This document shows, piece by piece, positions 37,352 to 48,330 of a stretch of 48,428 nucleotides of DNA (its first letter is position 1; each line of letters begins with the position of its first letter). The notes beneath the pieces were generated by a model. The model had not been told where the DNA came from and did not search any database. It saw only the letters and a program-made list of their open reading frames with translations. The translations under genes and the position numbers were made by a program. Source of the DNA: a virus (lineage: Duplodnaviria; Heunggongvirae; Uroviricota; Caudoviricetes); IMG/VR virus record IMGVR_UViG_3300045988_145381; one strand, 5' to 3'.

Positions 37352-37370
37352 TTAACGAACTCCAGTTAAA

Positions 37371-37489
37371 ACCACGATATGTGGTATTAAAACCACATAT
37401 CGTGAGTTTTTCAATGGGCGAAACAAAAAATAACCTTCTATTTGTGGTCCACCTCTCGTCTTACCATGTGAAAACCACTAAATGTGGTA
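37371..37489. promoter_or_regulatory. immunity operator region with three ACCAC-N5-GTG(G/A)(T/G) sites
   Basis: accacgatatgtggt (37371..37385), accacatatcgtgag (37392..37406), accactaaatgtggt (37475..37489) in the divergent intergenic region; tataaat -10-like element at 37493..37499. Confidence 0.6.
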
Positions 37490-37525: not shown

Positions 37526-38188
37526 ATGAAAAGCAACGACGAGAACATCAAGAAAGAAATAGGTCTGCGCATTCAGACTCTACGGAAACAATCCGGCATG
37601 ACTGCCGGAGATCTCCAGCAAGTCACTGGAATAGGCTTAAGCACCTTGCAGAACTATGAGGCCGGATTAAGACAACCATCTATACCTGCCATCAAGAAAA
37701 TCGCGCACGCCCTGAAAGCATCAGCGCCTTACATCGCGTGCTTAACAGATAACCCGTTCCCACCCCAGAATACTAACGCTCCTGTTATTCCTGGGCTTGT
37801 AGCTATAAAAAATGACATAGCATCGCACGCCGGAGAAAAGCCAGTGCTGGCGATAGAACAGGAGATTTTACGAAGCAAGAACATCAACCCATCGTCTCTG
37901 TCAGTTCTCCAGAGCAACGATGAGCTAAAGCTAATGTCACCAACAATATCCCCTGGCTCCCAAGTCCTGATTAATACAGACGATACAGAGATTCATGAGG
38001 GGATCTATGCCCTTGAAGACAGAAATGGCCTGGTTGTTTTGAGGCACTGTAGAGTCATACCGGGTGACAATGCTGTTATGCTGTCAACCGAAAGGGATGC
38101 TGAAATGAACACTAAGCATCTGAATAACGAGGAATTTAAGCGTTATAAAGTTCTTGGCCGCGTAGTTAGTGTTGTCAACTGGTTATGA
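37526..38188 (+). CDS. CI-like repressor (HTH domain plus S24 LexA-like peptidase domain)
   Basis: 220-aa ORF; N-terminal HTH (...QSGMTAGDLQQVTGIGLSTLQNYEAG...), Ala-Gly in HAGEK, C-terminal S24-like region. Confidence 0.75.
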   Translation: MKSNDENIKKEIGLRIQTLRKQSGMTAGDLQQVTGIGLSTLQNYEAGLRQPSIPAIKKIAHALKASAPYIACLTDNPFPPQNTNAPVIPGLVAIKNDIASHAGEKPVLAIEQEILRSKNINPSSLSVLQSNDELKLMSPTISPGSQVLINTDDTEIHEGIYALEDRNGLVVLRHCRVIPGDNAVMLSTERDAEMNTKHLNNEEFKRYKVLGRVVSVVNWL

Positions 38189-38280
38189 TACACAGCACGG
38201 CGAAAGCCGTGCATTTCTACGCTCAAAAAAACCACGCTTTGTGGTTTTGACAACATGTGAAAGTATAAAAGAGGCTACGC

Positions 38281-38655
38281 ATGGAATTACATACAGCCAA
38301 TAAAAACGAAACTCTGATCACTGCTGGAATCGAAATCCAAGCGTTGAACATAGCGATTGAGTGTATGTTATGCCAAATCATTGATAATGAGAAAGATATC
38401 GACTGGATAGAATCTATCCTTCATCTGGCATCAGAACAAAAAGTCTGCCTCAAAACGGCCTTACAATACGATGTGCCAGCGGTATCGAAGCTGTGCCAGC
38501 CATTGATGGCATATAACAGGGCTATTATTTCTGTATGCCTCATGATTCTTGATGAAAACACCCCTCTTAGCGACCGCTCAGAAGCTGCTCTAACCCTCTC
38601 ACGTAAACAGCGACAGCTAGCAAATCAACTGATATCAACGATAGCTGACCTCTGA
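38281..38655 (+). CDS. hypothetical protein downstream of the repressor gene
   Basis: 124-aa ORF followed by a hairpin at 38660..38679. Confidence 0.45.
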   Translation: MELHTANKNETLITAGIEIQALNIAIECMLCQIIDNEKDIDWIESILHLASEQKVCLKTALQYDVPAVSKLCQPLMAYNRAIISVCLMILDENTPLSDRSEAALTLSRKQRQLANQLISTIADL

Positions 38656-38683
38656 CTGCAAGCGGGCTAACGCCCGCTTATAT

Positions 38684-38790
38684 GATTATAGATTTATATA
38701 ATTATATAAAACGCTTTTCATCCGCCAAAAAGTTGGTTATGCTTACCTCGTTCTATAAATATAGATTTATAGAATTATATAACCAAACAC
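38684..38790. repeat. AT-rich palindromic repeats upstream of parF-like gene (candidate centromere/operator)
   Basis: Perfect 16-bp palindrome ttatataattatataa at 38694..38709 and related tatagatttatagaattatataa at 38764..38786; a third copy at 39458..39490. Confidence 0.5.
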
Positions 38791-39459
38791 ATGGAGTCTC
38801 GACAAATGACTATCTCTGTAGGTATTTTCAACGGAAAAGGCGGCGTAACCAAATCAACAATTGCCCGTGCTTTAGCAGTTGCTTATGCAAAGGCTGGCTG
38901 GAATGTATGCCTGATCGATATGGATGTGCTTAACGGAACGGTAACGCGTTGGGTACAACGCAGAATGGCCAACAATATCGAACCAGCAATCGCGGCGCAG
39001 CCGTGCGGCACACCATCACAAGTCCAGAAAATCATCGAATCAGAAGTATACGACCTGGTTATCGTCGATGGCGGTGCCTACGCATCTGAATCAGTACCGA
39101 AGCTCTCTGAATTTCTGGATATGGTTATTTTGCCAACCAGATTCTCTACCGATGACCTGGAAACCACCGTTAACACTGCTCACGGCATCGTTAAAAAGGG
39201 TGTACCAATCAAGAAAATTTGCATGGTGTTTTCCGGCGCGGCTGAAAACGAAGCTGACTATATTGAAGCCCAAGAGTACCTGGCTAATACGCCATACTTT
39301 GTTGTTGATAAGTACATTCCCCACAAGCCAGCTCTGAGCAAAGCTCAGGATAAGGGCTTAAGCCTCATTGAGTGCTCATACGTTGCGCCACGCAAAAAGG
39401 CAGACGACGTTATTCAGGGGATTATCAACCAGCTTGAGGCTCTGACTACTGCCGCGTAA
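38791..39459 (+). CDS. ParA/ParF-type partition ATPase
   Basis: 222-aa ORF with deviant Walker A (GIFNGKGGVTKST); start may be the second Met at 38806. Confidence 0.7.
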   Translation: MESRQMTISVGIFNGKGGVTKSTIARALAVAYAKAGWNVCLIDMDVLNGTVTRWVQRRMANNIEPAIAAQPCGTPSQVQKIIESEVYDLVIVDGGAYASESVPKLSEFLDMVILPTRFSTDDLETTVNTAHGIVKKGVPIKKICMVFSGAAENEADYIEAQEYLANTPYFVVDKYIPHKPALSKAQDKGLSLIECSYVAPRKKADDVIQGIINQLEALTTAA

Positions 39460-39502
39460 TATATAATTATAGTTTTATAGATTTATATAAGAGGGGATAC
39501 AC

Positions 39503-39967: not shown

Positions 39968-39990
39968 AACCATAAAAAAGGCCCCCGAAG
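39968..39990 (-). terminator. rho-independent terminator (minus-strand orientation)
   Basis: ggcccccgaaggggcc hairpin with a T-run on the minus strand. Confidence 0.5.
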
Positions 39991-40001
39991 GGGCCTAATC
40001 G

Positions 40002-40124
40002 CTACTTGCTGCTAATGTTTATCGTCACATTTAGAGCGTTATCAGTAATCTTCCAACCCTCCCCATGTGGCGTAAACAAAGCTCCAGTAACAACGATAAA
40101 AATACACATACAGTATTTTTTCAT
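40002..40124 (-). CDS. small hydrophobic peptide (40 aa, MKKYCMCIFIVVTGALFTPHGEGW...)
   Basis: Read directly from sequence; Shine-Dalgarno-like aaggg upstream; terminator 39968..39990 immediately downstream. Confidence 0.25.
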   Translation of the reverse strand: MKKYCMCIFIVVTGALFTPHGEGWKITDNALNVTINISSK

Positions 40125-40520
40125 TGTATGGCCCTTACAGGCCGTTTCACGGCATCCCCACCGACGAAAACAACGCGAGAGCAAGCACGGCTGCTTGTGC
40201 TTGCATGTACGGCAACGGAGAATCCTCCCCTAAAGTCGGTGCCCGGGTGCGAATCGGCGGGAAGGTCCACAGGTATTTTACGATTATTTTAAGATTAGTA
40301 ATAGGAAAGAAATTAAACGAAAAAACTCGTTTATTTTCACAAAATCAGTAACCTACCCACAATCTGTGAGTTTGCAGGCACAACAAGAACCACAATTTTT
40401 TGAAGCATAATAGTGGACTATTATTACCTTTTGGGTAAAATTAACTTGCTGCTTGTGCTTGCGTGGTTGTTTATACAACAACGTAATGCTGAAAGGACCG
40501 CGAATCCGATCAGCACGAAA

Positions 40521-40549: not shown

Positions 40550-40690
40550 TTTCTGCCTACCAATAAACCCACGCTATGTGGTTGTCTCTGTTAAAATCCC
40601 GCCGTATTGACATGAATGCGCCATTGGTGGACACTTTCCGAGCCGTAGCAAAATCTACGGTCGGGATTGGCGTCCCGATTGCACAATGGC

Positions 40691-40716
40691 GCATACCGCG
40701 TTAGCGGTTTTTTTAT
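40691..40716 (+). terminator. intrinsic terminator-like hairpin in the ant leader region
   Basis: accgc-gtta-gcggt stem-loop followed by 7 T. Confidence 0.45.
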
Positions 40717-40876
40717 GCGTAAAGCACTGCTACACCCAAATTATGGTGGGGCGTGCGGGGGCGGAGAAATCCGCGCCGGGTTTGTCATTGTGCCGGTTAC
40801 GCCAACCCTGTACGTCTCACCACCATATTGATTGGCGTCATTGGTGGTGATAGTTCCTTTAATCGGAGATATCACA

Positions 40877-41068
40877 ATGACAAACCTACCCCATGACTAT
40901 TACGTCAACCTCGTAAAGATCCTTCTCAAGAAAGCCTCATACGCCGATAAATTCCGCCTGGCTGAAATCATCGAGCGCGAAGCTATGCGCATCGCCAGCA
41001 ACGATAACGCTGTTTCTGACGCAAAAATCTCCCTCGTAACCAAAGTAGTTATGGGAGGTGCAAAATGA
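40877..41068 (+). CDS. small protein overlapping the ant start (Icd-like position)
   Basis: 63-aa ORF (MTNLPHDYYVNL...) within ORF 40832..41068; ATGA overlap with the ant-like gene. Confidence 0.35.
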   Translation: MTNLPHDYYVNLVKILLKKASYADKFRLAEIIEREAMRIASNDNAVSDAKISLVTKVVMGGAK

Positions 41069-42246
41069 AAACGCTTCCGACCGTTAACACCCTACAGCCT
41101 ATCCTGCATAACCAGCTCCCCGTTATCACTACTGAACTACTGGCGCAATTGTATGGAACCGAGCGCCAACGTCTGACAAACAATTTCAATAGAAACAAGG
41201 AACGTTTTATAGAAGGTAAACACTTTTTTAGGATAGAAGGTAAAGAGTTACGAGAGTTGAAGAACAAAAACTCTTTAAGAGTTCCTGTGAGAGTAGTTAA
41301 CGAACCATCTTTAAGAGGGTTACAAATTCCCCCGAAAGTTCGCTCCCTCATCCTCTGGACAGAACGCGGGGCTGCACGTCACGCTAAAATGCTTGAAACT
41401 AACCAAGCGTGGGATGTGTTCGAACGGCTGGAAGACTGCTATTTCAACCAGAACGCGCAAACGGCCGCGACCGTAACCGTCTCACCAAACAATGCTCGTG
41501 AGGTTGTCGATACGCTCAACGCCAAACCGATGTTTTACATTAAAGTGTGCAACAACGAGCCACTCACAACCTCAGCCGATGTTGCCCAGGCATTCAGCAC
41601 CACAAACAATTCCATCGTTATGGCCATCGATGCGTTACGCATTCCTCGCACAGCTGCGGCGCGTCATTTCTTTAAAGAGCAACGACCGTTGGAAGGAAGC
41701 GACCGCGAAATAACAATCTATCGCATGACAAAAGACGGATTTACCTTGCTCATGGAAAGTATCGACGGTCCAGGCGTGAAGGATATCAAGCTGGCCTACA
41801 TTGAAGCCTTTAACGCTATCAGCAGCGTGTTAAAAACACAGTACGAGCGCGATCTGGCTAAACGACTGTACCAGGAAAAAACGATTATCCGCGCGGCAAC
41901 AGAGCATAATCGGCTATTAACGGAACCGAACTACAGGAAGGAACTAATCAAGGAGTTTGACAAGGCAACAGGGAAAACCAAAGCGGCGCTAAGTCTGCCA
42001 GCAATGACTCAGGAAAATGTGATATCAGCCTTACTTCTTGATCTGCTCAGAAACGCCAGAGCACTTATCAGCTTTGACGAAAACCTGAATCCTCAGCTCA
42101 AGCTACTACCACCGACAGGCAAAGTAGTCGACCAGGCTGATCACAACAGCATACTCAGCGTACTGGATGCAAACCTGCCAGCCAGGACACTACAGGATCT
42201 GATAAAAACATGTGCTGATAAGCTGGCACAGAAAAGCAGACCATAA
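41065..42246 (+). CDS. ant: antirepressor (ORF6N/KilA-N-like plus Rha/Ant-like domains)
   Basis: 393-aa ORF; N-terminal ...ITTELLAQLYGTERQRLTNNFNRNKERFIEGKHFFRIEGKELREL... and central Rha/Ant-like region; hairpin terminator at 42252..42271. Confidence 0.65.
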   Translation: MKTLPTVNTLQPILHNQLPVITTELLAQLYGTERQRLTNNFNRNKERFIEGKHFFRIEGKELRELKNKNSLRVPVRVVNEPSLRGLQIPPKVRSLILWTERGAARHAKMLETNQAWDVFERLEDCYFNQNAQTAATVTVSPNNAREVVDTLNAKPMFYIKVCNNEPLTTSADVAQAFSTTNNSIVMAIDALRIPRTAAARHFFKEQRPLEGSDREITIYRMTKDGFTLLMESIDGPGVKDIKLAYIEAFNAISSVLKTQYERDLAKRLYQEKTIIRAATEHNRLLTEPNYRKELIKEFDKATGKTKAALSLPAMTQENVISALLLDLLRNARALISFDENLNPQLKLLPPTGKVVDQADHNSILSVLDANLPARTLQDLIKTCADKLAQKSRP

Positions 42247-47576: not shown

Positions 47577-47775
47577 CGGGCTTTTTGTTTCCATATCTGG
47601 TCACTTTTCAACCAGACACCCACAATCATAACCACGTTACGTGGTTTTAAGAGAACTCTACCACAACACTTTCGGTCATGCACGAAGTCTCTCACTGATC
47701 GAACGATAATCCACCAGTAAAAGGATCTAAATTGGATCTCGTTTTGCGAGCATCATACTACTGGCCTAACTCCAG

Positions 47776-48330
47776 TCAATGATTCCCAGCCGGAAACCTG
47801 CGGTAAAGCGTGGATAAGGTAACATCGAAGATAATCGCTATCCGCTTACGTGAAACACCATTCGCAATAAGCCTTCCGATCTGTTCCCATTGCTCTGGTG
47901 CCAATTTTGAGCGGCGTCCTCCTATCCTGCCGTTAGCCCTTGCCACCGCCAATCCTGCACGCGTTCTTTCAATCATATTTTCCCGCTCCATCTCTGCGAC
48001 TGCACTCAGCATCGTGTAGGCAAAGCGGCCAATTGAAGTGCTAATTTTTATCCCTTCCGTAATCGAAATAAACTCAATGTTGTTTGATAAAAAATAGTTT
48101 AGTAAATCAACAAGATGAATCAGAGAACGCCCCATTCGGTCCAGCTTCCAGACAATAACCGTATCGCCCGGCCGTAACACCTTCAGTAGCTTATCAAGTC
48201 CTGGTCGTTTTGATTTAGCACCGGATATTTTATCTTCAAAAATCCGGTCACATCCTGAACTCCTGAGCGCCTCCAATTGTAATTCCAAATTCTGGTCAAA
48301 AGTTGACACCCTCGCATAACCATATTGCAT
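47776..48330 (-). CDS. serine DNA invertase (Hin/Gin/Cin/Pin family)
   Basis: 184-aa ORF MQYGYARVSTFDQNLELQLEAL...DRMGRS... with catalytic Ser motif and C-terminal HTH; start wraps to window position 30; crossover site upstream. Confidence 0.9.
   Translation of the reverse strand: MQYGYARVSTFDQNLELQLEALRSSGCDRIFEDKISGAKSKRPGLDKLLKVLRPGDTVIVWKLDRMGRSLIHLVDLLNYFLSNNIEFISITEGIKISTSIGRFAYTMLSAVAEMERENMIERTRAGLAVARANGRIGGRRSKLAPEQWEQIGRLIANGVSRKRIAIIFDVTLSTLYRRFPAGNH

Follow-up and report, generated by a model that had tools for sequence, protein, structure and literature searches.

A predicted repressor-controlled one-gene unit behind the cI-like repressor gene of a p-p47-type phage-plasmid

The locus considered here raises the question of whether a small gene that directly follows a phage repressor gene is expressed along with the repressor in the dormant state or is kept silent by it. 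The gene (ORF124) lies in a stretch of viral DNA of 48,428 nucleotides (IMG/VR record IMGVR_UViG_3300045988_145381), the whole of which is called the window. An earlier note, made from the sequence of this stretch alone, had placed a 124-aa open reading frame directly downstream of a CI-like repressor gene, in the same orientation and ending at a hairpin; the + strand was confirmed for both ORF124 and the repressor gene, and the hairpin was found at 38660-38679 (-14.9 kcal/mol). The same note had proposed that ORF124 is co-transcribed with the repressor and occupies a lysogen-expressed cargo slot like that of rexAB. Neither proposal is supported by the comparisons presented below, in which a conserved terminator and a perfect predicted operator stand between cI and ORF124, ORF124 appears as a syntenic core gene, no PADLOC or Rex match was obtained and the product does not look like a membrane protein. 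The features of the locus are as follows.

37526..38188, + strand: cI-like primary repressor gene, 220 aa, HTH_3 domain at the N-terminus, degenerate S24-like domain at the C-terminus
38195..38219, + strand: T1, the predicted intrinsic terminator behind cI, with stem 38195-38201/38206-38212, a GAAA loop and the tail ATTTCTA
38230-38246, no strand assigned: predicted repressor operator AACCACgctttGTGGTT from the motif scan, a perfect palindromic 17-mer AACCAC-N5-GTGGTT, 35 nt upstream of the ORF124 ATG
38256..38264, + strand: motif TGT[GA]A[AC]AG, 10-11 nt past the operator at a fixed distance in 5/7 lineages
38270-38274, + strand: Shine-Dalgarno sequence AGAGG, 6 nt before the ORF124 ATG, read from the sequence
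38281..38655, + strand: ORF124, ATG start, 124 aa, stop included
38660..38690, + strand: T2, the predicted terminator behind ORF124, with stem 38660-38667/38672-38679 and a U/A-rich tail after it
38680..38790, no strand assigned: iterons of the AT-rich TATATAATTATATAA type, upstream of parA, recognised by reading the sequence and also conserved among the aligned lineages
38806..39459: parA, downstream of ORF124, followed by an 82-aa partner gene

ORF124 is a genuine gene and more than a chance open reading frame, since its frame is conserved, its dN/dS is 0.27 (Yokenella versus Citrobacter pair) and its AlphaFold fold is confident. The full-length frame is found in E. coli, Salmonella, Yokenella, Citrobacter, Enterobacter, Klebsiella and metagenomic relatives, with identity down to 27-29%. 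The dN/dS value points to purifying selection, which is weaker than that on the neighbour genes (0.02-0.11), and ORF124 is the fastest-evolving gene locally, with identities of 35-60% versus 60-75% for cI, 72-79% for the 164-aa gene and about 90% for ParA. Frameshifted alleles of 74-78 aa were also seen (database entries P0008, P0010, P0011 and P0012, and plasmid CP042622), the site being an A5 run at 38437-38441, and cI is also split in one entry with a frameshifted ORF124; the ORF124 alleles could be homopolymer sequencing errors or real pseudogenisation. As well, a metagenome contig (L031, ERZ9422687 NODE_26099) holds a C-terminal remnant of a distant ORF124 homologue (P0022, 74 aa) directly behind an IS91-family transposase, which is a copy disrupted by insertion.

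The region in the window is 99% identical to Yersinia phages vB_YpM_39/41/44, and ORF124 is present at 95% identity or above in 58 plasmids, all circular and about 46-52 kb long. Most of these come from E. coli, and one is the 48.5-kb plasmid of strain ATCC 25922, which is annotated with RepA, ParA and toxin-antitoxin genes as well as a complete myovirus-type set of structural genes; this marks it as a phage-plasmid, and the published study of ATCC 25922 prophages deals with chromosomal prophages only. A 2026 preprint described p-p47 as a new E. coli phage-plasmid family and listed CP032086.1 (94,204 bp) as a member (doi 10.64898/2026.08.19.745698); since this listed member carries ORF124 at 98.4% identity, the window can be assigned to the p-p47 family. 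According to the same preprint (bioRxiv 10.64898/2026.08.19.745698), p-p47 elements occur widely in E. coli, are able to carry bla-TEM-1 and to spread heteroresistance, undergo phage-mediated transfer, are not induced by mitomycin C or ciprofloxacin and have RepA/CopA-type copy control. The ORF124 gene is not mentioned in that preprint, and in the literature no paper was found that mentions its protein accession, its locus tags or the names of the Yersinia phages. In the window, no CopA was detected at Rfam gathering thresholds.

Across the lineages compared, the gene order of a divergent 164-aa early gene, cI and ORF124 is kept in all (7/7), including the most distant relative (L021, 27% identity), and parA-parG follow ORF124 wherever the contig extends. 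Because every homologue with recoverable context sits in this same place, ORF124 can be regarded, on synteny, as a fixed core gene and not as cargo, unlike typical defence or moron genes. Past parG, relatives differ in their antirepressor, which is of the ORF6N or the pRha kind, and in their toxin-antitoxin pairs. Downstream of ORF124, the AT-rich iterons probably form the par operator or centromere, with which a separate module would start; iterons of this TATATAATTATATAA type are also found at 39460-39495 and so lie on both sides of parA. In the relative L021, another repeat, TTATTTAAATCTTT, stands behind the ORF124 homologue, which points to an exchange of the par module. ParA relatives were found in 631 plasmids versus 61 with ORF124, which leaves about 570 plasmids with ParA/small-partner cassettes and no ORF124, and the gene was not found in two such cassettes that were inspected; by this comparison, ORF124 is not part of the Type Ib ParA/ParG-like partition cassette.

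Several further modules were observed in the window. Between parG and the secondary immunity locus, Rfam identified a full-length ryfA RNA (39974-40270, - strand, 143.5 bits, E=5e-37); we presume that it may be a type I toxin-antitoxin element of the ryfA/TimP type, and if so, it would be an extra plasmid-stabilising module. An immI-like locus, resembling the P1/P7/N15-type secondary immunity, spans 40567-42246 and comprises the following.

40642-40714: Rfam isrK, 67 bits
40739-40827: C4 antisense RNA, 72 bits, with a sub-threshold c4-a1b1 target at 40629-40681
40832-41068: 78-aa open reading frame of the immI-like locus
41065-42246: ORF6N-domain putative antirepressor, 393 aa, where relatives have a pRha-domain protein

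Moreover, a serine recombinase/invertase gene (47776-48330, - strand) adjoins tail-fibre and oppositely oriented tail-fibre-assembly genes, and the ATCC 25922 relative (L009, 10150-12887) has a partial, inverted tail-fibre gene there; by analogy, this arrangement looks like a Gin/Cin-type host-range inversion switch.

Whether ORF124 can be transcribed together with cI depends on the 92-nt gap between the two genes, which holds both T1 and the predicted repressor operator, the latter beginning 18 nt past the T1 hairpin. The T1 hairpin (7-bp GC stem, -15.0 kcal/mol, z=-3.85, with 0/200 shuffles folding as well) is present in 7/7 lineages, with 95.9% of cells paired and one compensatory change from A-U to G-C via G-U, while the loops vary. 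With a TTTTTT tail in 6/7 lineages, T1 has the form of a canonical intrinsic terminator; the E. coli lineage of the window has ATTTCT there, a weaker tail, and therefore some read-through from cI, and with it some lysogenic expression of ORF124, may occur there. At the other end of the gene, T2 is an 8-bp GC-rich hairpin (z=-3.56, 0/200 shuffles folding as well), whose GCGGGC...GCCCGC stem and T-rich tail are kept in 4 aligned lineages and in the relatives L022 and L024. As T1, the operator and T2 bracket it, ORF124 is best read as a one-gene unit with a terminator on either side and a repressor operator in front.

The operator itself was defined from a reference set at the immunity switch.

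37370-37386, 37391-37407 and 37473-37489, no strand assigned: three operators of the cI/early-lytic switch region, which form this reference set, from the motif scan

The exact motif ACCAC-N5-GTGGT occurs 4 times in the window, and with at most one mismatch 8 matches were obtained versus 0.78 expected, a number reached by 0/100 shuffles. Only two perfect 17-mers are present in the genome, namely that in front of ORF124 (38230-38246) and one at repA (47630-47646). The half-sites of the ORF124-proximal operator are invariant in 7/7 lineages while the flanking intergenic sequence varies, and the N-terminal 75 aa of the repressor are 79-89% identical among the lineages sharing ACCAC-N5-GTGGT. At the lytic promoter (TTGAAA-17-TTTAAT, minus strand), one operator is in the spacer and one lies over +1, and the motif is inside the core promoter also at the cI promoter TGTATAAAT, at the repA promoter (TATGAT) and at the immI promoter TGTTAAAAT (40567-40597), which precedes the isrK/C4-antisense-RNA and antirepressor locus. 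Such placement inside readable core promoters is, as far as sequence can indicate, the geometry of repression. The second perfect operator, AACCACgttacGTGGTT at 47630-47646, abuts a TATGAT -10 element reading toward repA on the minus strand. The N15 CB repressor acts at repA, and by analogy the cI-like repressor probably also throttles the replication initiator RepA. In the p-p47 preprint, one high-copy mutant had a SNP in a 'potential transcriptional regulator', and this regulator might be the cI-like repressor.

The cI-like repressor was assigned by Pfam to HTH_3 (E=4.6e-11), with a marginal Peptidase_S24 match (E=0.084), and by PHROG to phrog_4, 'transcriptional repressor' (E=3e-23), while BLASTP against lambda cI gave no usable alignment. 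LMSP was read by eye in the place of (G)DSM and VLRH in that of VKR, and relatives have LMAP or LMEP. The repressor thus appears to be without the LexA/S24 catalytic Ser/Lys dyad and hence non-cleavable, a reading that rests on motifs by eye and the weak S24 Pfam score. Loss of the dyad would fit the reported absence of mitomycin C and ciprofloxacin induction in the p-p47 family.

How the operator would act on ORF124 was considered from the sequence between T1 and the Shine-Dalgarno sequence, in which a consensus scan and a manual comparison of 7 lineages gave no canonical or convincing sigma-70 promoter on the + strand. The TGT[GA]A[AC]AG motif is possibly a weak extended -10 candidate, and the reading of its TGTGA as a CRP site was rejected, TGTGA not being conserved. 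A model of lambda-PRM-like activation with a leaderless mRNA was likewise set aside, as the distance from operator to ATG varies between 35 and 48 nt and the (A)GAGG Shine-Dalgarno sequence is kept in 6/7 lineages. The conserved Shine-Dalgarno sequence implies a leadered mRNA, so that the operator cannot hold an activating position upstream of a complete promoter, and any promoter between T1 and the Shine-Dalgarno sequence would overlap the operator. Either such an overlap or the blocking of an upstream transcript by bound repressor predicts lower expression of ORF124, and we infer that the repressor lowers it.

The protein offers a second line of evidence. AlphaFold2 modelled ORF124 as an up-down four-helix bundle (pLDDT 91.7, pTM 0.85) with helices at residues 2-36, 40-61, 66-91 and 96-123, and conservation in the family is highest on helices 1 and 4. 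Every family member is acidic (pI 4.4-4.8, net charge -6 to -12), ORF124 itself having a pI of 4.77 and a net charge of -6. No credible transmembrane segment was found in any family member, the maximal 19-residue Kyte-Doolittle mean being 0.9-1.8 in segments with charged residues, and the model suggests an amphipathic, soluble bundle; a RexB-like or Sie-like membrane protein was ruled out on the Kyte-Doolittle means and the soluble-bundle model.

The earlier note had also called ORF124 an unknown gene, and the database searches agree, as its best and only PHROG match is phrog_7632, a family of unknown function. Pfam gave no family for ORF124 at E<=0.1, the NCBIfam and PDB sequence-profile searches with the ORF124 family gave no match, and the model retrieved nothing from the BFVD viral structures at E<0.001. 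An HMM profile search among 1.84 billion representatives returned 7 matches and a profile search among 5.8 billion proteins about 20 clusters, all from Enterobacteriaceae and all of the same narrow family; two scans of genome contigs found no relatives, and the viral contigs held close relatives only. No functional assignment was obtained from the fold. Weak bacterioferritin matches in 2/10 members (best E=0.0024) raised a ferritin-like di-iron bundle, which was rejected on an alignment without a conserved histidine. The genes that follow the closest cI relatives, found in Vibrio and Aliivibrio phages, were also compared with ORF124 and are unrelated to it. Neither a family HMM or fold match nor the extreme negative charge of DNA-mimic anti-restriction proteins such as Ocr and ArdA was seen in ORF124, and the protein shows homology neither to P1 Coi nor to any known anti-restriction family. 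ORF124 is thus an orphan family that is new to annotation and has no characterised relatives, while a repressor-gated small phage gene is of a familiar kind.

Taken together, the terminators, the operator and the synteny suggest that ORF124 is probably switched off in the dormant state and is not a lysogen-expressed defence gene. The fuller reading that we favour, tentatively and at somewhat below an even chance, is that cI represses ORF124, that the gene is expressed early, at infection or following antirepressor action, and that its product binds another protein. The operator in front of ORF124 would be a top-affinity site, lying over or just downstream of any promoter that serves the gene, and in the plasmid-prophage state the repressor would keep ORF124 off or low. 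The protein would be made when repression is missing, that is, upon infection of a naive cell or once the antirepressor of the immI-like locus has inactivated cI, and the absence of mitomycin C and ciprofloxacin induction fits such antirepressor-driven rather than RecA-driven derepression. The acidic bundle would then act by binding another protein, a mode proposed because it is acidic, carries no signature of a DNA-binding protein or an enzyme and has its conserved residues mostly on helices 1 and 4. Two candidates lead for its target. With the repressor itself as target, ORF124 would be a feed-forward commitment factor of the Coi kind, and with a nuclease or defence enzyme of the host, it would be an early anti-host protein. 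A host-enzyme target would fit the fast evolution of ORF124, but its charge is far below that of true DNA mimics and it matches none of them. In short, we infer repression by cI, early timing and a protein-binding mode for ORF124; the lack of a recognisable sigma-70 promoter, the degenerate tail of T1 and a possible looping role of the operator could count against this reading.

Among the alternatives, the one that survives best, although it is unlikely, is that transcripts from the repressor promoter read through into ORF124 in the lysogen and that the gene serves in exclusion or defence, as a functional counterpart of lambda rexAB. Its position close behind cI on the same strand would suit this, as would the weak ATTTCT tail of T1 in the lineage of the window and the fact that an independent promoter for ORF124 is not evident, and its fast evolution is compatible with an arms race. 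On the other hand, T1 is conserved with a T6 tail in 6/7 lineages and is followed by a perfect operator before ORF124 begins, and the gene is a fixed core gene and not variable cargo. PADLOC-DB v2 defence HMMs run against 10 family members gave a single sub-threshold match (NucC, E=0.022, in 1/10), which is at chance level, and no Rex family was matched; the predicted soluble protein also has no membrane partner comparable to RexB.

It is more doubtful that the operator at 38230-38246 serves chiefly as a distal looping site, like lambda OL or the flanking sites of phage 186, stabilising occupancy of the switch, while ORF124 has an expression of its own, independent of that site, and serves plasmid maintenance, for instance as a partition or copy-control accessory. 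The site fits the consensus best and is 760-860 bp away from the operators of the switch, ORF124 is directly upstream of parA-parG, and the perfect site at repA would link immunity and plasmid functions through the same repressor. Yet the related ParA/small-partner cassettes of about 570 plasmids do without ORF124, which is found in 61 only, T2 and the iterons separate it from parA, and a repressor sitting 35 nt ahead of the ATG should impede transcription entering ORF124. Frameshifted alleles in deposited plasmids, which are possibly sequencing errors, also speak against a maintenance role.

Within the favoured reading of a cI-repressed early gene, the more specific idea that ORF124 is a functional analogue of P1 Coi, binding and inactivating the repressor so that derepression reinforces itself, is improbable as it stands: ORF124 adjoins cI and has an operator, following the same logic as P1 coi, protein antagonists are expected because the repressor appears to have no S24 Ser/Lys dyad (by eye; Pfam S24 E=0.084) and the p-p47 family is not SOS-inducible, the acidic surface would suit binding to a DNA-binding domain, and the conserved helices 1 and 4 parallel the conserved N-terminal domain of cI, but hhalign of the family profile against P1 Coi gave a probability of 0.2% over 4 aligned columns, and the phage already has a dedicated antirepressor module made of C4 RNA and an ORF6N protein.

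As a core gene that is predicted to be under direct repressor control and lies beside the repressor gene, ORF124 is a candidate component of the switch or a candidate infection-establishment factor, and its function would help explain how p-p47 elements choose between plasmid maintenance and phage transfer. A bolder proposal, which we hold to be rather unlikely, is that ORF124 founds a family of repressor-gated 'commitment' or anti-host proteins, an acidic bundle that is made only once a non-cleavable cI has been lifted. If true, ORF124 would either sequester the repressor, as a structurally new analogue of Coi that makes an SOS-independent switch irreversible, or counteract a nuclease or defence enzyme of the host upon infection. 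For annotation, the lesson is that a gene after cI is not automatically a lysogenic-conversion slot, as the terminator and operator found here would make this one the equivalent of an early left gene.

Compared with known systems, ORF124 resembles RexA/RexB, SieB and P2 Old/Tin in being small and beside the repressor gene. It differs from them in lying behind a terminator and an operator, in showing no homology, in having no membrane component, RexB being a membrane channel with 4 transmembrane helices, and in being core and not variable. T7 Ocr, lambda Gam and Ral, and ArdA are small acidic early phage proteins that bind host enzymes, and ORF124 is similarly small, acidic, helical, fast-evolving and probably early, whereas its charge is far lower than that of DNA mimics of the Ocr/ArdA type, and it has no Pfam or fold-specific match.

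Phage-plasmid P1, with its C1-controlled operons and its immI locus (c4-icd-ant), is alike in that the operators of the primary repressor are scattered over the genome, here at the switch, the isrK/C4-antirepressor locus, the replication gene and ORF124, while the repressor of the window is of the HTH_3/cI type and not P1 C1. In the P1 annotation, coi is next to c1 and is annotated with C1 operators; a place beside the repressor gene and a preceding operator of that repressor are both found for ORF124, although it is unrelated to Coi, is twice its size and lies downstream rather than upstream of the repressor gene.

In the lambda immunity region, the leftward strand reads PRM-cI-rexA-rexB-tImm, followed by OL/PL-N. 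Lambda N is basic, arginine-rich, RNA-binding and largely disordered, whereas ORF124 is acidic and folded, and, unlike the lambda PL unit, that of ORF124 is a single gene with its own terminator, no visible PL-like canonical promoter and no rex homologue. In arrangement, however, the series cI-tImm-OL/PL-N is matched here by a repressor gene, a terminator, an operator and a small gene on one strand, which would give ORF124 the place of the first PL gene and not that of rexAB.
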